Source: Gemmatimonadota bacterium | GTDB lineage: Bacteria; Gemmatimonadota; Gemmatimonadetes; Gemmatimonadales; GWC2-71-9 | Direction of reading: 5' to 3' | Assembly (NCBI GenBank): GCA_036679605.1 | Contig: JAZDCZ010000250.1 | Coordinates: 1-57,400 of the forward strand | Length of the DNA stretch: 57,400 nucleotides | In this document: positions 2,573 to 36,156 of the stretch, piece after piece | Numbering within the stretch: position 1 is the first letter of the stretch | How the letters are laid out: every line of letters begins with the position of its first letter | Position numbers and translations under genes: made by a program | Notes under the pieces: model-generated | Database searches by the model: none | Told to the model about the DNA's origin: nothing | The model's input: only the letters and a program-made list of their open reading frames with translations

Positions 2573-2637
2573 CATGAGAAGGTGCTTGGCAGCCACATCA
2601 CGTAACGCCACTCCGCGCCCGCCCCGTTGGGCCCTCG

Positions 2638-2705
2638 ACAATAAAACGATCTTCATGGAAGCTTCACAATAAAACGATCTTCACGGAAACTTCAGTGTTT
2701 TTTCA
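2638..2705 (+). promoter_or_regulatory. Tandem 28-bp repeat carrying YTTCA-N6-YTTCA boxes with 11-bp period
   Basis: Units 2638-2665 and 2666-2693 match at 26/28; CTTCA at 2651, 2662, 2679 and 2690, TTTCA at 2701. Confidence 0.65.
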
Positions 2706-2739
2706 ATTCAGTTGTTGCATAGACCCTTGTCGAGGAATC

Positions 2740-2777
2740 CCTGTCAGGAACTTTACTCCACCTGTCAGGAACTTTAC
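2740..2777 (+). repeat. Perfect 17-bp direct repeat CCTGTCAGGAACTTTAC with 21-bp period
   Basis: Copies at 2740-2756 and 2761-2777. Confidence 0.85.
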
Positions 2778-2800
2778 CGCCGCCACGTTAGGGGGAGCCG

Positions 2801-3544
2801 TTGCGAGTTTCTGTCGGAGTCATCCTGTGGCTGACTGCCATGGGTCCCGGTGCGTCCCTGGGTTTGGCCCAGGAGCAGCGTGCCTACGTTGCTCGCGAGG
2901 TGGCCAACGGCGGAGTCATTACCGGCACCGTATCGCTGAACGTCGCGACGCCGTCACTCACACGGCTGGCGATAACGAGCGATCGCGAGGTATGCGACCA
3001 GGAGCCGAAGTTTGACGAGAGTATCATTGTCGCTCCGGAGACACGCGGCCTGAAGAATGTTGTGGTCCGGCTCACTGATATCACGGAAGGCAAGGCCTGG
3101 GACGACACAAGCCGCCCTCCAGAGCTTAGCCAGATTGCGTGCCGCTTTGCTCCGCACGTTCTCATAGTTCCGGCCGGGCAAACATTCGATATTGTCAACA
3201 GCGACGGAATACTCCATAACATCCACACGCGTGGCTCCAAGAACCGTCCGATGAACAAAGCGCATCCGAAACTCCTCAAGAGATTGACGATGAACTTCAA
3301 GCGGCCCGATCTCGTCGCCGTGAAATGCGACGTCCACGACTGGATGTCGGGGTGGATCGTGGTGGCATCCCATCCCTACTATGCCGTGACGGATCCGGCA
3401 GGAAAATTCGAGTTGCAGAATGTGCCGCCCGGAACTTACACCCTGGAACTCTGGCACGAGAAACTTGGCAAGGAGATTCGACAGGTAACCGTCACTGCCG
3501 ATGGTAGAGCCCAGGTTGATGTGGAGTTTACAGCGGGAGATTAG
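2801..3544 (+). CDS. Periplasmic cupredoxin-like / carboxypeptidase-regulatory-like domain protein
   Basis: TTG start with SD GGGGGAG, signal peptide, CRFAPHV, HNIH…KCDVHDWM (His/Cys/His/Met ligands), VPPGTYTLELWHEKLG. Confidence 0.75.
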   Translation: MRVSVGVILWLTAMGPGASLGLAQEQRAYVAREVANGGVITGTVSLNVATPSLTRLAITSDREVCDQEPKFDESIIVAPETRGLKNVVVRLTDITEGKAWDDTSRPPELSQIACRFAPHVLIVPAGQTFDIVNSDGILHNIHTRGSKNRPMNKAHPKLLKRLTMNFKRPDLVAVKCDVHDWMSGWIVVASHPYYAVTDPAGKFELQNVPPGTYTLELWHEKLGKEIRQVTVTADGRAQVDVEFTAGD

Positions 3545-3613
3545 TTGGGAGATAGGCTTCGGGATTGCTTCCGAAGGGAATTTGATAGGGGGGAGTTTGT
3601 TAAGGTGAGTTCT

Positions 3614-4366
3614 ATGAAATTGCGGATCTGCCTAATCCCACTCGCAATCCTTTTCCTCTGGCCGCAAGTGGGGGTTCAGGCGCAAGCCTCAGTGACAATA
3701 TCGATGGCGAACAGGGAGTCGGTGGGCGCGGGTAAAAGACTTTACCGGAGGAAATGTGTCTATTGTCACGGCACGAATGGCAACGGAGATGGATCGGTCG
3801 CAAGGTATGTCTTTCCAAAACCCAGAGATTTCACACAAGGCGTGTTCAAGATTCGCTCTACGCCTACAGGGGGCCTTCCCACAGATAACGATCTGTTTCA
3901 GACTCTGAACCGCGGCCTCCCCGGAACCACCATGCCGGGATGGTTGAACTTGAGCGATAAGCAGCGGTGGCAGTTGGTGGCATACATCAAGACCTTCTCG
4001 CCCAGGTTCCAAGAGGAAGATCTCCCCGAGCCCATCCGCTTCGGCACGCCTAAACTCCCCTACCCGGAGAGCGTAATGAACGGCAGGCGGCTTTTTGTCG
4101 AGGCCGAATGCTGGAAGTGTCATGGAACGCTCGGTAGGGGAGATGGGCCTTCGTCTCATACCCTGATAGATGATTGGGGCTATCCGATTGTTCCGGCTGA
4201 TCTTACTGTCTCGCGCAACTGGCGAGGCGGCAATCGCGCACAAGACATCTTTCGAAGTATCGCCGTTGGGATCGGAGGCACGTCTATGCCAGGTTGGATG
4301 GACGCGTTGAGTGAGGATCAGATATGGGATCTGACCAACTACTTGCTCTCGATCATTCGCGGATAG
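3614..4366 (+). CDS. Periplasmic diheme c-type cytochrome
   Basis: Signal peptide from ATG 3614, CVYCH and CWKCH, PKPRDFT…GT(T/S)MP distal Met motifs in both domains. Confidence 0.9.
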   Translation: MKLRICLIPLAILFLWPQVGVQAQASVTISMANRESVGAGKRLYRRKCVYCHGTNGNGDGSVARYVFPKPRDFTQGVFKIRSTPTGGLPTDNDLFQTLNRGLPGTTMPGWLNLSDKQRWQLVAYIKTFSPRFQEEDLPEPIRFGTPKLPYPESVMNGRRLFVEAECWKCHGTLGRGDGPSSHTLIDDWGYPIVPADLTVSRNWRGGNRAQDIFRSIAVGIGGTSMPGWMDALSEDQIWDLTNYLLSIIRG

Positions 4367-4417
4367 TCGAGGTCGGGCCCTGCGCTTGCCGCATTCGAAA
4401 CACAGGAAGAACTAGCC

Positions 4418-5797
4418 ATGAATCGCGTTAGAAAGATGAGTCTCGTTGTCCCGGGCGTAATGCTGAGTGTCTCCTCGGTTCTGCTCGTTCCTGGGCACGA
4501 CCGGCCGACAGACCACGTGCCCAGTTTTGCACGTCGCTACAACCTGAGTTGCAGTACTTGCCATACTGTGTTCCCCGCGTTGACTGAGTATGGCAAGGTG
4601 TTCCGTGCGAAGGGTTATCGCTTGCCGGGTACTGGAGGAGCAGCAGGCGGCGAACAGCCGCTTGCACTGGGACCGGAGGACGGGGTTCCGAAGGGGAAAC
4701 GTCCCACTAACATTCCTTTCATAGACATACCGGCAACTTCGGTTGCTTCCTTTCAGATCATATCAGACTTCGTGAACCGACCCGATGCCGCGGTCAGCAA
4801 CGAGTTTACCGGAATCAGCTCGGTTGGGCTCATCTTCGGAGGCGCTATGGGTGAGCGCTTTTCGTTCTTTGGCAACGTTGCCCTGGTCGAGAACGGGAAT
4901 TTCGAAGGGATTGATCGCCTATTCTTGCAGTACAACCGATCGATGGCGATTAACGTTAGAGTGGGACAGTTCGAGCCACGAGCCATACCGTTTTCCAACC
5001 ACCGTCGCTTGCTCCGCATCACACCTTATCTAAACGGCGTCTTACCCATAATACCGGCGCAGAACTTCAACGGTTTTTCCCCGAACCAGAAAGGCATCGA
5101 GACGTTCGGACGTATTGCCGGGCCCGCGGGTTTAGGGGAACTGGAATACAGCATAGGTCTCGTCAATGGTGAGCCCGGTGGCGCCTTCGAGGCGCTTGAG
5201 GATGCCGACGGGCCCGTTGCTGACATGGTTCATGAGTTGGAGGAGGCCTACGAAGAATCCGGCGGCAAGTTCGATTTCAATAATAACAAAGATTATTATG
5301 GGCGCCTGAACTACAACACATGGCTCCGGGGAGGAATCTCCGTAGGGGGCTTCTTTTATAAAGGTAGGTCAGGTTTCATGACGGATGTCGAGGATTCGGA
5401 ATCATTCGTCGCCGATGGCAACTCTTTCCGCCGCTGGGGAGTAGATGCCCGATGGGACCAAGAAAACGGTTACCTGTCGCTGTTAGGATCCGTGCAGTTC
5501 TTCGATGACAGGTTGGACAGAGCGCAGCTTGACAACCCGTCAGCGATGGTGACCACAGGAGAGGGACAGGTGTACATCTTTCCCTGGCTCGTGCCGGGCT
5601 TCCGCTACGAACGGGTTGATGTGGACCGATTCCCGTCCGGTTTTCCGACCAGTTTCGAGCGTTACTCGGCTGATCTACTGATGCTACTTGCCTCGAATAC
5701 CATGTTGATGATCGGGACCACGTGGAGCAGCAACTCGGCGCCCGACTTGCCGCTGTTCGAGAGATTCTCACGCGTAGCGCTGCACCTCGCTTTCTGA
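4418..5797 (+). CDS. Cyc2-like fused monoheme cytochrome-porin (outer membrane)
   Basis: N-terminal PSFARRYNLSCSTCHTVFPALTEYGKVFRAKGY matches the Cyc2 PxFAR…CxxCH…PxL…G…F…GY signature; beta-barrel body; terminal Phe. Confidence 0.8.
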   Translation: MNRVRKMSLVVPGVMLSVSSVLLVPGHDRPTDHVPSFARRYNLSCSTCHTVFPALTEYGKVFRAKGYRLPGTGGAAGGEQPLALGPEDGVPKGKRPTNIPFIDIPATSVASFQIISDFVNRPDAAVSNEFTGISSVGLIFGGAMGERFSFFGNVALVENGNFEGIDRLFLQYNRSMAINVRVGQFEPRAIPFSNHRRLLRITPYLNGVLPIIPAQNFNGFSPNQKGIETFGRIAGPAGLGELEYSIGLVNGEPGGAFEALEDADGPVADMVHELEEAYEESGGKFDFNNNKDYYGRLNYNTWLRGGISVGGFFYKGRSGFMTDVEDSESFVADGNSFRRWGVDARWDQENGYLSLLGSVQFFDDRLDRAQLDNPSAMVTTGEGQVYIFPWLVPGFRYERVDVDRFPSGFPTSFERYSADLLMLLASNTMLMIGTTWSSNSAPDLPLFERFSRVALHLAF

Positions 5798-5832
5798 GCG
5801 TCTCCACTTGATGACGTTAGTTTGTGAACGCC

Positions 5833-5871
5833 AAAAAGAAACGCCCCGCGACCACTAAGTGGCCGCGGGGC
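5833..5871 (-). terminator. Rho-independent terminator between the convergent cytochrome operons
   Basis: GCCCCGCG-A-CCACT/AGTGG-C-CGCGGGGC hairpin at 5843-5871 followed on the minus strand by TTTCTTTTT. Confidence 0.8.
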
Positions 5872-5900
5872 TAACCTCCAGCAAGGGCGAACCGCGCGGC

Positions 5901-6521
5901 CTACTTGCTTTGGAGGGTTGCTAGGTACGCAACTATTGCTTCGATCTGCTCAGTTGTCAGCTGGAAATTCGGCATCATCGATGTTGCATTATCGACGGAA
6001 GGATCCTGGAGCTTGGACCTCACGAAGTCGACCCCTTTGCGTTCGATGGTCCCGTTGAGTGACGGTCCGACCTGACCTCCAGCGCTGCCCAGTACGTGGC
6101 ATCCGACGCATGCCTTTTGTTCGGCCAGTAACTTCCCGTTCGCTATGACAGTCGGGTCGTTGGATACCGGACCGACTTCCACTGCGTAAGGTAGACCGAC
6201 CAGGGCCTCAACATTGGGATCTCCGTTTGTCGCCTGTAGAAAGGCGAGCACTCCCCTGACCTCTTTGCCTGTGAGATTCGCTCGTGCCCGCATGTGGTTC
6301 GCTATGGTAACCCATTGCCGATCCGACCGCTCCAGGGGGGATCTGGCATTATGACAGTTGCCGCACATTGTCCCGTATATCTTGGCGCCGTCGGCGACCA
6401 AACTACTACCATCCAGATTGTCATTTGCCTGCTGGGCCGCAGCTGCCCCTGGAGAAAGCACCAGGAGCGTAAGCGTCATGCAAGCCGCGGCGCTGATCCG
6501 CTCAATTCTGTTAGCACTCAT
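5901..6521 (-). CDS. Periplasmic diheme c-type cytochrome
   Basis: Signal peptide, CGNCH…HMRARANL domain and CVGCH…GPSL…SMMPNF domain. Confidence 0.9.
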   Translation of the reverse strand: MSANRIERISAAACMTLTLLVLSPGAAAAQQANDNLDGSSLVADGAKIYGTMCGNCHNARSPLERSDRQWVTIANHMRARANLTGKEVRGVLAFLQATNGDPNVEALVGLPYAVEVGPVSNDPTVIANGKLLAEQKACVGCHVLGSAGGQVGPSLNGTIERKGVDFVRSKLQDPSVDNATSMMPNFQLTTEQIEAIVAYLATLQSK

Positions 6522-6530
6522 GATTTCCTC

Positions 6531-7622
6531 CTAGAAGCCGAACGCGATGTGCATCACGACACGGTTGTTATCCAGCTCGAGACCGTCTTCCTTGTTGAGT
6601 TCGAAGCCGGCCATTACCGCCACCGTTGAGCTGAGCCAATAGTCCAAGCCGAAGCCGGCCTGCCAGGCACCCTGATCTTGCAGGACACCGTCAAGCTCGG
6701 AGTCGAACACCTGAGTCCAACGAAGCACAGGCTCCCACCGGCCGTATCGGTACGCCGCCTGGGCGTAGAACCCGTCACGGACGAGCGTAGGAAAGCCTGA
6801 CACCACCTCGATCTCCTGCCGAGTCTGCACGTACTCGCCGCGCAATTCGAAGTGCGTCGCATGGAACTCCGCGGCAACGTTCCAGCCGGTAAAGTCCAAG
6901 ATGTTGTTGTCGTCGTAATCGCCGTTGAGGTACGACACGTTCGCCTCGACCCATGGTGGTAATCCAAGGTCAATGCGCCCACCAAACATCTTGCTGGTGT
7001 TGTTGTCGCTCGAGGAAGCCTGAAACTCGAGTTCGGGAATCGGCTCGGACGGATCCTCGGGGGAGGCACCTTGTGTAACGTACGCGTTGAGGTTCACGTG
7101 AAACGGCCCGGGGCGCAGCATCCCTCGTGCCATGAATCCGATATCCGACACGATCGGGAGCAGCGGCGAAGCACCGAATGCTGCAACGTGGTGGCCGAAG
7201 ATCGGCGGTGCCGTCGGAAACTTGTTTATCCATGTCGGATGTAGCCGCTCACCGAACACGCCGAATGGGATGAGAAATTTTCCGCCTACGAGCGTTATGT
7301 TGTCGGTTAGCATTACGTCTATCTGCGCGTACTCGAGCGCAGTCTCGGTAATGCCCTCCGTCAGCGCAAACTCAAACTCCGCTTCAAATAGGATTCTATC
7401 CTGGAACTGAAAGAGGAAGATCGGACTCAAGCTGGTCGTAAACGAGTTTTGGTTGCTGCCCTCCGTAAGGGCTGTGTACCCCACAGTTCCATAACCGGTA
7501 ATCACCGTCTGATTCGTGGGAACGACACGTTCTCCGACGATCCCCTGTGCATGGGCCGCCGGTGCGGCAAATAGGATCACCGCACTCGCAACGGCCACAA
7601 CTACTGCGCTATTAGTTGCCAT
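6531..7622 (-). CDS. Outer-membrane porin (OprO/P-like beta-barrel)
   Basis: ATG 7622 with SD GGAGG, signal peptide AHA-Q, FEAEFEF…LEYAQID…GKFLIPFG…ERLHPTWINK, ends IAFGF. Confidence 0.8.
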   Translation of the reverse strand: MATNSAVVVAVASAVILFAAPAAHAQGIVGERVVPTNQTVITGYGTVGYTALTEGSNQNSFTTSLSPIFLFQFQDRILFEAEFEFALTEGITETALEYAQIDVMLTDNITLVGGKFLIPFGVFGERLHPTWINKFPTAPPIFGHHVAAFGASPLLPIVSDIGFMARGMLRPGPFHVNLNAYVTQGASPEDPSEPIPELEFQASSSDNNTSKMFGGRIDLGLPPWVEANVSYLNGDYDDNNILDFTGWNVAAEFHATHFELRGEYVQTRQEIEVVSGFPTLVRDGFYAQAAYRYGRWEPVLRWTQVFDSELDGVLQDQGAWQAGFGLDYWLSSTVAVMAGFELNKEDGLELDNNRVVMHIAFGF

Positions 7623-8391
7623 GGTCGTGACCTCCAGTATCGGTCGCAGGCTCCTCCTCGGCCTCGTCGAGTGCTTGGATGGGAATTCTGAATTCACCTC
7701 CGAACTCGACGCCGTTGACTTCGATCTCTACATGAAGTTCGTAGATGCCTACTCCGCCAAACTCGCCCTCTACCTCGTATTCGCCAGCCTCCTCCTCGAC
7801 CGCTTCGAGCACGGATTCCGTGCCCCCGGGGAAGTGCATCTCGACCGCTAACTGGAGGCCGGCAACTTCGTCACCGGGAGTTCCATCCGGGAGCAACTCG
7901 TGAACGTGCAGGTGAATGTGCCGGGCTGTCGCCTCGTGGACCTCTCCGCCCGGAACCTCCATCTCTATCCAATAAGGGCCGACCTCCCTGTGCTGGTGCT
8001 CGACCGCGATCTCGGTTTGGCCAATCTCGCCCACGATCCCGTGCCGTTCCGGCATGCCCATCAGCTGCAGGTGGTGCTCTCCAGCCTCGAAGAACATCAC
8101 ATGAGCGGTGTATGCGTCGCCGACAGGTTCTAGGGCAACCGTCCGAGTGACGTCGCTACCATGAGTGCTTATCTGCAGGGCCGGCTGCTGCATGATCATG
8201 GGCGCGCCGTTCTGCATTGAGTGAATACGGATCTCAACTTCCTCAAAGGTCTCCACTCGTGCGACTTCGATCTCGAATTCGACGTCGGTTTCTAGGTCCG
8301 CGATCGCAGTGGGGTTGTCCCACCCCGTGCATCCCAACGTCGCAACGAGAGAGCCGGCCGCGAAGTTGATAATTCGCTTAGTGTATTTCAT
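7612..8391 (-). CDS. Acidic His-rich lipoprotein with two YtkA/FixH-like domains (putative metal chaperone)
   Basis: ATG 8391 with SD GGAG, lipobox TLGC, repeated G-x-Y…F…G-x-[HY]-x-L units, HIHLHVH, C-terminal GGHDHGN. Confidence 0.7.
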   Translation of the reverse strand: MKYTKRIINFAAGSLVATLGCTGWDNPTAIADLETDVEFEIEVARVETFEEVEIRIHSMQNGAPMIMQQPALQISTHGSDVTRTVALEPVGDAYTAHVMFFEAGEHHLQLMGMPERHGIVGEIGQTEIAVEHQHREVGPYWIEMEVPGGEVHEATARHIHLHVHELLPDGTPGDEVAGLQLAVEMHFPGGTESVLEAVEEEAGEYEVEGEFGGVGIYELHVEIEVNGVEFGGEFRIPIQALDEAEEEPATDTGGHDHGN

Positions 8392-8481
8392 TGCTGCTCC
8401 AGTTTGGTTCAAGTACCAAAAGCCCGTCAGAGGGCTATATTCTCTTTCCGTCAAAGATAAAGTGCGTGAGTAATCTTGGCT

Positions 8482-8497
8482 TGAAGCAAAAGTGAAG
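8482..8497 (-). promoter_or_regulatory. CTTCA-N6-CTTCA box upstream of the lipoprotein-porin-cytochrome operon
   Basis: Minus strand reads CTTCACTTTTGCTTCA, about 90 nt upstream of the start at 8391; same motif as at 2651-2705. Confidence 0.5.
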
Positions 8498-8560
8498 TTT
8501 TCTTTACATGGATCCGACGGCTTATCTCCATTCCAACGGAGCGGCACTCAGTGAACCTCT

Positions 8561-8576
8561 CTTCACAATAGTTTCA
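8561..8576 (+). promoter_or_regulatory. CTTCA-N6-TTTCA box in the divergent intergenic region
   Basis: CTTCACAATAGTTTCA; shares the 10-mer CTTCACAATA with 2662-2671. Confidence 0.45.
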
Positions 8577-8712
8577 TGCCGATTACAACAACGACGGATG
8601 TCTCGATACATACGCCGTGTGACTTGTGACATGACTCAGAGAGAGCGCACGTGACCAGGCAACAGCTGACGACCAACTAACCGGTGAGGGCAAATGCTCA
8701 GGGAGTGCAGAC

Positions 8713-9150
8713 ATGAGTAACTTGGCATTGGCGATCGTTGTGGGTTTACTGGGCGGGCTAGCCATAGCATTCCAGAACCCATTGGCCGGACTCATGGGGC
8801 GTATGGTAGGTGCTATCGAAAGCGCCTTCATCGTTCATCTTGGCGGGACCATAGTTGCCGGCTTGCTGCTCTTGGCGATGGGTGGTCGGAACATCGGTGC
8901 ATGGAGGAGTGCACCATGGTACGCACTTTCGTCAGGCGTACTTGGTGTCATACTCATCGCGTCGCTGAGCTACACGATCCCCAGAATGGGAGTCGCCGCC
9001 GCCGTTACGCTCGTTGTCGTGGCGCAACTCAGCATCGGCGCGGTGTTGGATCACTACGGAGTACTGGCGGTGATGCCCCGGCCCCTGGAGCTGTCGCGCG
9101 CGGTCGGCGTGTCGCTCCTGTTCGTAGGTACGTGGTTGATACTCAAGTAG
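8713..9150 (+). CDS. DMT family transporter (YdcZ/DUF606 type)
   Basis: About 5 TM helices, AFQ…, PWYALSSGVLG, VAQL…LDHYG motifs. Confidence 0.85.
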   Translation: MSNLALAIVVGLLGGLAIAFQNPLAGLMGRMVGAIESAFIVHLGGTIVAGLLLLAMGGRNIGAWRSAPWYALSSGVLGVILIASLSYTIPRMGVAAAVTLVVVAQLSIGAVLDHYGVLAVMPRPLELSRAVGVSLLFVGTWLILK

Positions 9151-9297
9151 CTTGGGATTGGGCGGCTCAGGAGTCGTTCTCACCGTCCTTTCGCTACAGG
9201 TCGGCCGCCGCTGGTTGTGGGCCGAACGGCTTGCCCACTTGAACAAGCCCGACATCTGGCCATCTTAATGATCCTCACCGAATTGTCCGGAGGAAAG

Positions 9298-10148: not shown

Positions 10149-10553
10149 CTATTCTTCTTCGTCTAAAAACTCGAGCATGGGGCACTCACCGGTGGGTTGG
10201 CGAGCCTCACACGACTCGACAAAACGATTGAGCGCCTTCTTTATGGTTTCGAGTTCGGTGATCTTCTGCTCGACCATCGCGATCTTCGACAGCGTCTTCG
10301 CCTCAACTGCTTGACAGGCGTTCACGTGGTCGATTCTCAAGGCCAAGAGTTCGCCGATCTCGCTGAGCGAAAACCCGAGATCTTGGGCTCGCTTTATGAA
10401 ACGGATCTGCCGTGCCGCATCTGGAGAGTACTGCCTGTAGCCCGACCTGCTGCGGCTCGGCACGTCTATTAGGCCCCGGCGCTCGTAATACCGCACCGTC
10501 TGGACGTTTACGCCGGCTTGAGCAGCGAGCCGGCCGATTGTCATCGTCATCAC
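10149..10553 (-). CDS. MerR-family heavy-metal-responsive regulator with Hg-type Cys spacing
   Basis: TIGRLA…TVRYYERRGL HTH; C80/C115/C124 spacing equals MerR C82/C117/C126. Confidence 0.9.
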   Translation of the reverse strand: MMTMTIGRLAAQAGVNVQTVRYYERRGLIDVPSRSRSGYRQYSPDAARQIRFIKRAQDLGFSLSEIGELLALRIDHVNACQAVEAKTLSKIAMVEQKITELETIKKALNRFVESCEARQPTGECPMLEFLDEEE

Positions 10554-34812: not shown

Positions 34813-36156
34813 CTAGACACAATCCCGGACGGCCTGGATGGCTTGTGCTACAACCGGGATTTCATTGTCGGCGATGGTTCGCACGTCGAAGATTACGCGC
34901 TGGTCCGCGGTACGGGCTAGAATAGGGGGTTCGTTGCTGCGGAGCGAGGCCAGAAAGGCATCGGCCGACGCGGCCTCAACCACGACCAAAGTGGTGGCCA
35001 GTTGGGTGCCAGGGAACGCGCCGCCTCCTACTGCCGATTCCCCGGGTTCGGTTGTGGCACCGGGCACCAACTCGGCCAGTTGCCGGGACCGCCGCTCGAG
35101 GTCTCGCGGGTCAGCAGTGAGCATCGCAAGACAGGGAATCTCCCTGGTCGCGACGGCAGGATCCCGATAGAGCGCGAGCGTTGCCTCGAGGGCAGCGATG
35201 GTCACCTTGTCGGGGCGGAGCGCGCGCGCCAACGGATTGGCCGCCGCTCTGTCGATCAAGTCTTTGGGGCCCACTACTATGCCGGCTTGAGGACCACCCA
35301 ACAACTTGTCGCCGGAGAAAACGACAATCGCTCCTGCCGCCACACTGTCAGAGATCAGAGGCTCTCCCTTGAGTCCATGCTCTGATAGATCGATCAGGAG
35401 TCCGCTCCCGGCATCGTGGATAACAGGAATCTTGCGAGCCTGCCCCAGCGAGACCAAGTCGGCGAGGGTCGTTTCCTCGACGAAGCCGAGCTGTAGGAAG
35501 TTGGATTGGTGAACCTTGAGCAGAACTCGAGTGTTGGGACTGAGAGCGAGTCGATAGTCCGATAGCCGAGTGCGGTTGGTTGTTCCCACTTCAACCAGTA
35601 CGCTACCGCTCTTCGTCAATATATCCGGTATCCGAAACGCGCCGCCGATCTCGACCAGCTCACCGCGCGACACGATCGTCTCTCCCCCGTCGGCGAATGT
35701 GTTCAGCAACATGAACATCGCGGCCGCGGCATTGTTGACCACCAGAGCGTTCTCCGCTCCAGTAATCTCAGCGAGTAGAGACCGAATGCGTGCTTGTCGC
35801 GATCCCCTGTTGCCGGTTACAACATTCAGTTCCAGCGTACTGTAGCCGAATCCTCCAATGCAAGCTTTCCGGGCGGCCTCAGGCATTGGTGCCCGGCCGA
35901 GGTTGGTGTGGAGGACCACGCCAGTCGCGTTGACGACGCGTGTGAGCGACATCCGTGTGCGTTCGGCGATCTCCCGTTCAACGTCCGCGATCCATCCGGA
36001 CTGGGGGCTAACTCCGTCTCTGGATCGAGCGGCTTCTATGCTGGCTCGGATAGAATCGACTACCACGGCGCGCGGTGCCGAATCGAGCAAGCCGGCCTCT
36101 TCCGCGTCCGCCAGGAGCTTGTTGACCGATGGCAGATCTCTCAGTTTGTCGCTCAT
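34813..36156 (-). CDS. selA: L-seryl-tRNA(Sec) selenium transferase
   Basis: LRDLPSV N-domain, NATGVVLHTNLGRA, SRGELVEIGG.FRIP, EVGTTNRT, SGDKLLGGPQAG. Confidence 0.97.
   Translation of the reverse strand: MSDKLRDLPSVNKLLADAEEAGLLDSAPRAVVVDSIRASIEAARSRDGVSPQSGWIADVEREIAERTRMSLTRVVNATGVVLHTNLGRAPMPEAARKACIGGFGYSTLELNVVTGNRGSRQARIRSLLAEITGAENALVVNNAAAAMFMLLNTFADGGETIVSRGELVEIGGAFRIPDILTKSGSVLVEVGTTNRTRLSDYRLALSPNTRVLLKVHQSNFLQLGFVEETTLADLVSLGQARKIPVIHDAGSGLLIDLSEHGLKGEPLISDSVAAGAIVVFSGDKLLGGPQAGIVVGPKDLIDRAAANPLARALRPDKVTIAALEATLALYRDPAVATREIPCLAMLTADPRDLERRSRQLAELVPGATTEPGESAVGGGAFPGTQLATTLVVVEAASADAFLASLRSNEPPILARTADQRVIFDVRTIADNEIPVVAQAIQAVRDCV

Follow-up and report, generated by a model that had tools for sequence, protein, structure and literature searches.

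We analyzed a 57,400-nucleotide stretch of DNA from a Gemmatimonadota bacterium (GenBank assembly GCA_036679605.1, contig JAZDCZ010000250.1, positions 1 to 57,400; hereafter, the window) and focus on three genes at positions 2801-5797, which we call P1, P2, and P3. They encode, in that order, an exported cupredoxin with a predicted type-1 copper site, an exported diheme cytochrome c, and a porin that, judging from its sequence and a structure model, is likely a Cyc2-type fused monoheme cytochrome-porin with most of the features published for that family. On balance, we lean toward reading the three as a single accessory operon whose products would lead electrons from the outer membrane to the periplasm and onward to respiration. 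The pairing of a porin gene of this kind with a cupredoxin gene recurs across phyla. Cyc2 is a marker gene for microbial iron oxidation, and most of its homologues are found in uncultured heterotrophs; a copper-protein partnership that crosses phyla, joined in this clade by a diheme cytochrome, provides a concrete and testable protein trio for a large uncharacterized branch.

Results

Three co-oriented genes for exported redox proteins

The three open reading frames (ORFs) all lie on the + strand, at 2801-3544 (P1), 3614-4366 (P2), and 4418-5797 (P3), with intergenic gaps of 69 bases between P1 and P2 and 51 bases between P2 and P3. Export of the three proteins was judged by eye from their leader sequences. 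An initial annotation, made by a model from the DNA sequence alone, had described this co-oriented arrangement, a copper-type ligand set in P1, two CXXCH motifs in P2, and a porin with the N-terminal signature PSFAR...CSTCH...PAL...G...F...GY in P3; its coordinates and motifs are all borne out on the sequence.

The cytochrome-porin P3 and its relation to Cyc2

P3 (4418-5797, + strand; 459 aa from an ATG start) consists of a leader at residues 1 to ~30, a heme domain with PSFARRY-NLS-CSTCH-TVF-PAL at residues 35-55, a barrel at residues 109-458, and a C-terminal F. Its single CXXCH, CSTCH at residues 45-49, lies within PSFARRYNLSCSTCHTVFPALTEYGKVFRAKGY, after a basic and hydrophobic leader. Keffer et al. 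2021 describe Cyc2 by a leader, one CXXCH, an upstream AXPXFAR[Q/K][T/Y], a downstream PXL, a minimum length of 365 aa, and a porin of 16 strands modeled on OprO/OprP, templates that are also named there for Cyc2PV-1. P3 has the leader (by eye), the single CXXCH, the PXL, and the length, and its model has the 16 strands. The PXL is P53-A-L55, with P53 and L55 at least 90% conserved in a 36-sequence alignment. The upstream motif reads P-S-F-A-R-R-Y, which places R40 at the [Q/K] position, one conservative change off the published pattern. Among 30 motif-bearing close homologues, 20 have FARRY and 8 have FARKY; the latter fits the published pattern and occurs in 79 of 123 motif-bearing representatives.

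Profile libraries were silent on P3: no Pfam or NCBIfam model matched it, and the NCBIfam scan, taken to E ≤ 10, also returned no model for its paralogue or for the canonical-motif proteins described below. By sequence, P3 has no relative among solved PDB structures. A word-indexed search returned 38 relatives, unnamed or “hypothetical,” from Acidobacteriota and Gemmatimonadota metagenome-assembled genomes (MAGs), and an exhaustive phmmer search returned 1646 representative relatives at E ≤ 1e-3 (224 at E ≤ 1e-10). The motif block is kept in 17 homologues with identity down to 29%. In the family alignment it reads [VI]PxFAR[RK]Y-3aa-C-x-x-C-H-3aa-P-x-L-N-x-F-G-x-x-F-x-x-x-G-Y directly after the leader, with an aromatic residue at the C-terminus, and the corresponding pattern is matched by 102 of the 150 representatives examined. 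The CXXCH with its flanking motif is the most conserved part of the family.

The AlphaFold2 model of P3 (mean pLDDT 59.6, pTM 0.65; barrel mostly at pLDDT 60-80) contains exactly 16 DSSP strands over residues 109-458. Among the 16-strand porins that Foldseek matched to this model, OprO (4rjw, rank 3) and OprP (2o4v, rank 4) fall within ranks 3-5 with E ~5e-12. The ESM Atlas returned unnamed clusters rich in Acidobacteriota and a pointer to Porin_O_P, and the members of the protein clusters looked up were unnamed or “hypothetical.”

For a sequence comparison with Cyc2 we relied on proxies, namely proteins with the canonical motif; no biochemically characterized Cyc2 sequence entered the comparison. 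A tblastn search of plasmids and megaplasmids led to two named ones, from Ralstonia sp. RRA.1 (446 aa, NPLFARQTGLECASCH...YPEL) and Methylocystis sp. MJC1 (552 aa, AVPSFARQTGQPCATCH...FPEL). The two share xPxFARQT-3aa-CxxCH-3aa-PxL with the spacing of P3, and Ralstonia is a genus named among Cyc2 holders (Keffer et al. 2021). With hhalign, a profile of 36 P3 relatives aligned to the Ralstonia protein at 98.4% probability (E 6.6e-15, 264 columns) and to the Methylocystis protein at 98.3% probability (E 1.7e-14, 127 columns). When the Ralstonia protein served as the query, “cytochrome C” proteins of Cupriavidus, Polaromonas, Dyella, and others were returned, with no known iron oxidizer among the best 120, and all 111 motif-bearing members of this family have FARQT or YARQT. 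P3 and its relatives, with FARRY or FARKY, therefore belong to a K/R-Y branch distinct from this Q-T branch. In the Methylocystis sp. MJC1 plasmid (3336-7106), the Cyc2-like gene is followed by three annotated c-type cytochrome genes and no cupredoxin gene, a partner set that differs from the P1 and P2 of the window.

The resemblance of P3 to Cyc2 of A. ferrooxidans, Cyc2PV-1 of Mariprofundus, and Cyt572 of Leptospirillum thus extends over the leader, one N-terminal CXXCH, a PxFAR-type motif, PxL, a barrel that is predicted to have 16 strands and resembles OprO/OprP, and an overall size of 400-500 aa. The heme-site histidine is His49 in P3, compared with His47 and His44 in the published Cyc2 models. 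P3 differs from the proteobacterial FARQT proteins in having FARRY, with FARKY across the wider subfamily; its host is a putative heterotroph without a RuBisCO hit, and P3 is known here from sequence and model. The Cyc2-like porin proposed in the initial annotation is accordingly upheld by motif, length, 16-strand barrel, and profile homology to FARQT-motif proteins, and the strict form of the motif fails at R40. The same annotation had pointed to Geobacter ExtI as a parallel CXXCH porin. That parallel is weak, because ExtI is described, in the accessible part of the ExtI paper, as being without a heme-binding motif, unlike P3 with its CXXCH.

P1, a predicted cupredoxin apparently nested in a beta-sandwich

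P1 (2801-3544, + strand; 247 aa) starts at a TTG with a Shine-Dalgarno sequence, GGGGGAG, just upstream and begins with an N-terminal hydrophobic leader. Its ligands are H139 and, in the loop C176-D-V-H179-D-W-M182, the residues C176, H179, and M182. All 20 aligned homologues (42-60% identity) keep these four residues, and the cysteine pair C65/C114 is likewise invariant. At E ≤ 0.01, neither a Pfam cupredoxin model nor any NCBIfam model matched; Pfam gave only CarboxypepD_reg-type matches, the CarboxypepD_reg hit itself spanning residues 191-242 and, in the profile, positions 28-80 out of 82. There are at least 745 homologues, which JGI often names “plastocyanin.”

The structure model (pLDDT 88.7, pTM 0.84) adopts the cupredoxin Greek-key fold, and Foldseek gave 49 PDB matches at E ≤ 1e-3, of which those listed are nearly all cupredoxins: amicyanin, plastocyanin, pseudoazurin, the cupredoxin domain of NirK, and CuA domains, with TM-scores of 0.6-0.7 normalized to the target. 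At the level of the fold, P1 is thus a cupredoxin as predicted from structure, and the copper-type protein of the initial annotation holds up. The model also has an N-terminal strand at residues 38-46 (GGVITGTV) of the kind that begins a CarboxypepD_reg sandwich. Because the Pfam match is without the first third of the profile and this strand lies at the N-terminus, the cupredoxin appears, from sequence and model, to be nested between the first strand and the remainder of a CarboxypepD_reg-like beta-sandwich.

P1 resembles amicyanin, plastocyanin, and pseudoazurin in its fold, its His/Cys/His/Met ligand set, and an amicyanin-like loop spacing. It differs from these single-domain proteins in its added sandwich and in having no Pfam cupredoxin match at E ≤ 0.01. 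Rusticyanin was considered and set aside: no rusticyanin chain occurs among the PDB sequence matches at E ≤ 1 or among the Foldseek matches listed, and P1 departs from rusticyanin in its ligand loop C-x2-H-x2-M, its CarboxypepD_reg-like sandwich, and its best fold matches, which are to amicyanin, plastocyanin, and pseudoazurin. A complex prediction with P3 (residues 31-459), heme, and P1 (residues 24-247) scored 0.00, below the mark, and says nothing for or against binding.

P2, a diheme cytochrome c of the Kustc0457 type

At its longest, the P2 frame spans 3545-4366 on the + strand; the likely start is the ATG at 3614, which has the Shine-Dalgarno sequence AAGGTGAG before it and a typical leader, MKLRICLIPLAILFLWPQVGVQA, after it. 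The protein contains CXXCH twice, as CVYCH at 71 and CWKCH at 189 (numbering of the long ORF), and Pfam finds two Cytochrom_C/CBB3 domains in it (class-I cytochrome c). Against PDB entry 6H5L chain B, P2 aligns over 215 residues (query 35-249, chain 6-220) at E 1.9e-60, with both CXXCH motifs and both downstream Met-Pro motifs in register. According to a preprint, 6H5L is the structure of K. stuttgartiensis HAO; a paper in JBC reports that HAO Kustc0458 was crystallized with the diheme cytochrome Kustc0457, its electron-transfer subunit. We infer that chain B is Kustc0457, and by sequence P2 is a close homologue of the Kustc0457-type diheme cytochrome c, with which it shares full-length homology, both heme motifs, and the downstream Met-Pro motifs. 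The setting differs: Kustc0457 partners a nitrite-reducing octaheme HAO, whereas P2 is encoded with a cytochrome-porin and a cupredoxin, and the gene annotation of the window contains no HAO gene.

Cyc1 and cytochrome c4 were also considered for P2, and no c4 or Cyc1 chain is present among its 18 PDB matches at E ≤ 0.01; P2 belongs to the Kustc0457 family and is not c4-type as Cyc1 of A. ferrooxidans is. The operon resembles the A. ferrooxidans chain of Cyc2, rusticyanin, and Cyc1 in its make-up: one monoheme cytochrome-porin for the outer membrane, together with two periplasmic proteins, a type-1 copper protein and a diheme cytochrome c. The initial annotation had proposed an analogous chain built from partner families other than rusticyanin and Cyc1, and the PDB sequence searches with P1 and P2 agree.

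Conservation of the gene set across loci and phyla

We compared nine named species-genome loci, comprising four from Gemmatimonadota, two from Acidobacteriota, one each from a Bacteroidota-labeled and a Planctomycetota-labeled MAG, and one from Ca. Scalindua rubra. The order P1-P2-P3 is found in five of the nine. The other four have, respectively, P2-P3 with a P1-like gene just downstream, P2-P3 only, P1-like genes on both sides of the porin gene, and a P1-like gene 2 kb downstream. A P1-like gene thus lies within ~2 kb of the porin gene in 8/9 loci, and a P2-type diheme cytochrome is co-transcribed with the porin in 7/9.

A sample from the phylum of the window comprised 401 genomes, counting its own; 98 of them match P3 at E ≤ 1e-8, and at 29 loci examined there a P1-like gene lies within 1.5 kb of the cytochrome-porin gene in 13, a P2-like gene only in 4, and neither in 12. 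In the phylum of an Acidobacteriota MAG, 61 of 201 genomes match the P3 family profile at E ≤ 1e-15; the corresponding counts for its 30 best loci are 13, 2, and 15, and of the 14 that score best, 13 include a P1-like gene, here on the downstream side of the porin gene. By our own arithmetic, a genome of 6.7 Mb with ~18 P1-like places would put one within 1.5 kb by chance in < 1% of cases. An orthologue of P3 (73-74% identity) is present in 2 of 400 other genomes of the own-phylum sample, both of which keep P1-P2-P3. Synteny elsewhere, on which the initial annotation had made its proposal depend, is therefore found both in the named loci and in the two own-phylum genomes with an orthologue.

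Genomic setting and paralogues

The threonyl-tRNA synthetase (ThrRS) gene of the window is single-copy and its product is 84% identical to that of a same-genus genome, which rules out a misbinned contig. This same-genus genome matches the window at 1307-2575 and from 9229 on, without the part from 2575 to 9229; where the window has a 6.6-kb redox gene region, it has ~28 kb of other DNA (G001:C12:1269-29370). This makes the region variable and the operon accessory. Orthologues of P3 with 68-75% identity occur in MAGs labeled as four different phyla. Because ThrRS identity is already down to 56-71% within the family, this suggests that the orthologues were spread by horizontal transfer or that binning errors are involved. 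The initial annotation had presumed a heterotrophic member of Gemmatimonadota, which fits both the nearest named loci (4/9 from Gemmatimonadota MAGs) and the lack of any RuBisCO match in the genome that holds the window, which is 96.5% complete.

This genome has three strong heme-copper oxidase loci and 3 motif-bearing cytochrome-porins in all; beyond the operon, it has ~17 other places with a P1-like match and roughly a dozen others with a P2-like one. A link to respiration is visible in two of its contigs. On C156, a P1-like gene and a P2-like diheme domain share one array with terminal oxidase genes, in the order cytochrome-bd-I-like, cytochrome c, cytochrome c, diheme plus EB_dh, P1-like, COX2, COX1, COX3; on C28, a bd-I-like gene has P1-like genes on either side. 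Another set on that contig comprises a histidine kinase, a sigma-54 regulator, a P1-like protein, a Cyc2-like protein, a receiver protein, a multi-cupredoxin protein, and a P2-like protein.

Several further observations concern the same genome. The P1-like and P2-like families are strongly expanded in it. The respiratory arrays (C156:36001-46000 and C28:28000-46000) combine bd-subunit-I-like proteins, several cytochromes c, and P1-like cupredoxins, and they include a P2-like diheme domain fused to an ethylbenzene-dehydrogenase-type heme domain. In C28:46001-58000, the Cyc2-like paralogue (466 aa, AIPAFARKY...CTTCH) adjoins a P1-like gene, and the multi-cupredoxin protein (624 aa) has Copper-bind, SoxE, and Cu-oxidase_2 matches. 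A similar array of P2-like, P1-like, porin, and small cytochrome genes is found on C141. The start of the window (a 164-aa gene at 139-633) recurs in the first 630 bases of C28, with 88-92% protein identity. The assembly amounts to 6.7 Mb in 434 contigs with 6.3% contamination; 60 relatives have 2-5.5 Mb.

Discussion

The electron path that we favor would run as follows. A small soluble reductant would enter or dock at the P3 porin and reduce the P3 heme on the periplasmic side. From there, the electron would pass to the copper protein P1 and/or the diheme cytochrome P2, both predicted from their ligands (His/Met hemes; Cys/His/His/Met copper) to be high-potential carriers, and then to one of the heme-copper oxidases of the organism, with the CarboxypepD_reg-like sandwich of P1 possibly acting as a docking or scaffold domain. 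Without RuBisCO, the module would supplement heterotrophic energy or remove reactive metal rather than serve autotrophy. The flow direction, electron donor, carrier order, and any stable complex among the carriers are putative parts of this scheme. Fe2+ is the most likely donor by analogy with characterized Cyc2, and because every tested member of the family oxidizes Fe(II) it is our best single guess, held tentatively and at somewhat less than even confidence.

A number of points weigh against this interpretation. It draws on sequence, models, and synteny. R40 misfits the strict Cyc2 motif, as the same position does in 20 of 30 motif-bearing close homologues, and the heme domain of the P3 model (residues 19-108) has pLDDT < 50. 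The operon is missing at this locus in the same-genus genome, only 2/400 other genomes of the phylum sample have a P3 orthologue, and 12/29 and 15/30 of the sampled cytochrome-porin loci have no partner within 1.5 kb. No iron-specific gene is found near the operon in the gene annotation of the window. Because the genome has so many cytochrome-porin, P1-like, and P2-like paralogues, substrates may differ between the copies. The authors who defined the family call the function of divergent Cyc2 homologues uncertain and in need of verification, and a survey of marine Gemmatimonadota notes that iron oxidation and reduction are indistinguishable from a Cyc2 annotation.

The same inward path could be fed by Mn(II), Cu(I), reduced sulfur, arsenite, or a reduced humic or quinone shuttle, which we regard as unlikely on present evidence and yet as the strongest competitor to Fe2+. 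Only three Cyc2-family proteins are described as activity-tested in the literature accessible to us, the divergent homologues are those called uncertain, and the paralogues and the P1/P2-like expansion suggest several substrates; next to the operon are a cytochrome c with best scores to SoxX- and ExtS-type models (below cut-offs) and a His-rich YtkA-like protein, with nothing iron-specific nearby. All three tested proteins nevertheless oxidize Fe(II), and the narrow 16-strand barrel has been argued to suit dissolved Fe2+. No gene indicates another substrate.

A reversal of the flow, outward to reduce an acceptor that is extracellular or enters the porin, for example a metal(loid) oxyanion, an Fe(III) chelate, or, at the surface of the cell, oxygen or peroxide, seems improbable to us: the hemes of the operon are His/Met-type and its copper has Cys/His/His/Met ligands, a set typical of high-potential carriers, and the paralogues are encoded alongside terminal oxidases. 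The outward conduits described in the accessible literature also use multiheme cytochromes. What speaks for this direction is the marine survey, according to which a Cyc2 annotation does not tell direction, and the solved homologue of P2, which feeds a reductive enzyme, the nitrite-reducing HAO. Still less probable is an arrangement with no conduit at all, in which P3 would be a solute porin with a structural or sensory heme and its neighbors would handle copper, for tolerance or for the assembly of cuproproteins. Cupredoxin-like proteins can have a role in copper tolerance, the barrel of P3 resembles the anion porins OprO and OprP, and a His-rich YtkA-like lipoprotein and a DMT-family exporter are encoded in the same variable region. 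Against such an arrangement stand the CXXCH and its flanks as the most conserved part of the P3 family, the complete electron-transfer type-1 ligand set (invariant in 20/20), and the dedicated diheme cytochrome co-transcribed in 7/9 named loci; the MerR-type regulator of the window, for its part, sits in the conserved flank and not in the variable region.

Metagenome papers have reported homologues of Cyc2 from putative heterotrophs among the Gemmatimonadota, Acidobacteriota, Planctomycetota, and Bacteroidota, so that finding the gene here is not new. In the literature outside subscription journals, we found no paper linking Cyc2 with a CarboxypepD_reg-cupredoxin or with a Kustc0457-type cytochrome, and within the literature searched the recurring cupredoxin-sandwich partner and the Kustc0457-type partner seem to be new. 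One may go further and suppose that the cupredoxin within CarboxypepD_reg is the dedicated periplasmic acceptor of the FARKY/FARRY Cyc2-like branch, and that the two jointly form a widespread, unrecognized, copper-dependent route of extracellular electron uptake in abundant sediment and soil heterotrophs (Acidobacteriota, Gemmatimonadota, and Planctomycetota, including the anammox Scalindua), feeding aerobic or nitrogen-oxide respiration. We consider this broader proposal possible and rather doubtful. Copper supply may limit the process. If Fe(II) is oxidized, common sediment Gemmatimonadota and Acidobacteriota would count as iron oxidizers; if it is not, marker-gene surveys that count such homologues overstate iron oxidation.

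Flanking signals and neighboring genes

The gap upstream of P1 is 228 bases long and contains two pairs of direct repeats. Two tandem 28-nt copies (2638-2665 and 2666-2693; 93% identical) may be a regulator site, and two identical 17-nt copies of CCTGTCAGGAACTTTAC (2740-2777; 21 bases start to start, 24 bases 5' of the P1 start) are a possible response-regulator site. In 11 homologous loci, the 28-nt repeats had no match at ≤ 6 mismatches and the 17-nt repeats none at ≤ 3. Downstream, a GC-rich, terminator-like hairpin (5843-5871; 13 pairs, 11 of them G-C) lies between P3 and a convergent cytochrome c gene. One sequencing run contains all of 2801-5797 and may be its source, and two marine-sediment metagenome runs contain about one-fifth of its words; no RNA run is listed among the matching runs, which carries no information on expression.

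The convergent set (5901-8547, - strand) consists of three genes. Gene 3 (5901-6521) encodes an exported cytochrome c with two CXXCH motifs (CGNCH at 53 and CVGCH at 138), the protein with the SoxX- and ExtS-type scores. Gene 2 (6531-7697) encodes a heme-less porin (Porin_4; C-terminal F), with its likely start at an internal Met at ~7622. Gene 1 (7612-8547) encodes an acidic, His-rich (17 His), YtkA-like protein, whose Pfam YtkA match is weak (E 2e-4, below the curated cut-off) and which is likely a lipoprotein if it starts at an internal Met at ~8391 (MKYTKRII...LGC). The same arrangement is found in locus L005, where the homologue of gene 2 (62% identity) has the same position and that of gene 1 aligns from residue 55, and the set lies nearby in L006 and L022; in all three loci, a homologue of gene 3 adjoins the triad. 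The set looks like an unfused porin-plus-cytochrome counterpart of P3, and its synteny suggests that it belongs to the same system.

Two other genes of the window, both on the - strand, deserve mention. At 10149-10553, outside the variable region and in a flank that the same-genus genome shares, lies the gene for the MerR-family regulator. Of its three cysteines, one is central and the other two lie close to the C-terminus with 8 residues between them, in what we take to be a heavy-metal-sensor pattern. At 34813-36156 lies the gene for selenocysteine synthase SelA, and the organism therefore probably makes selenoproteins.

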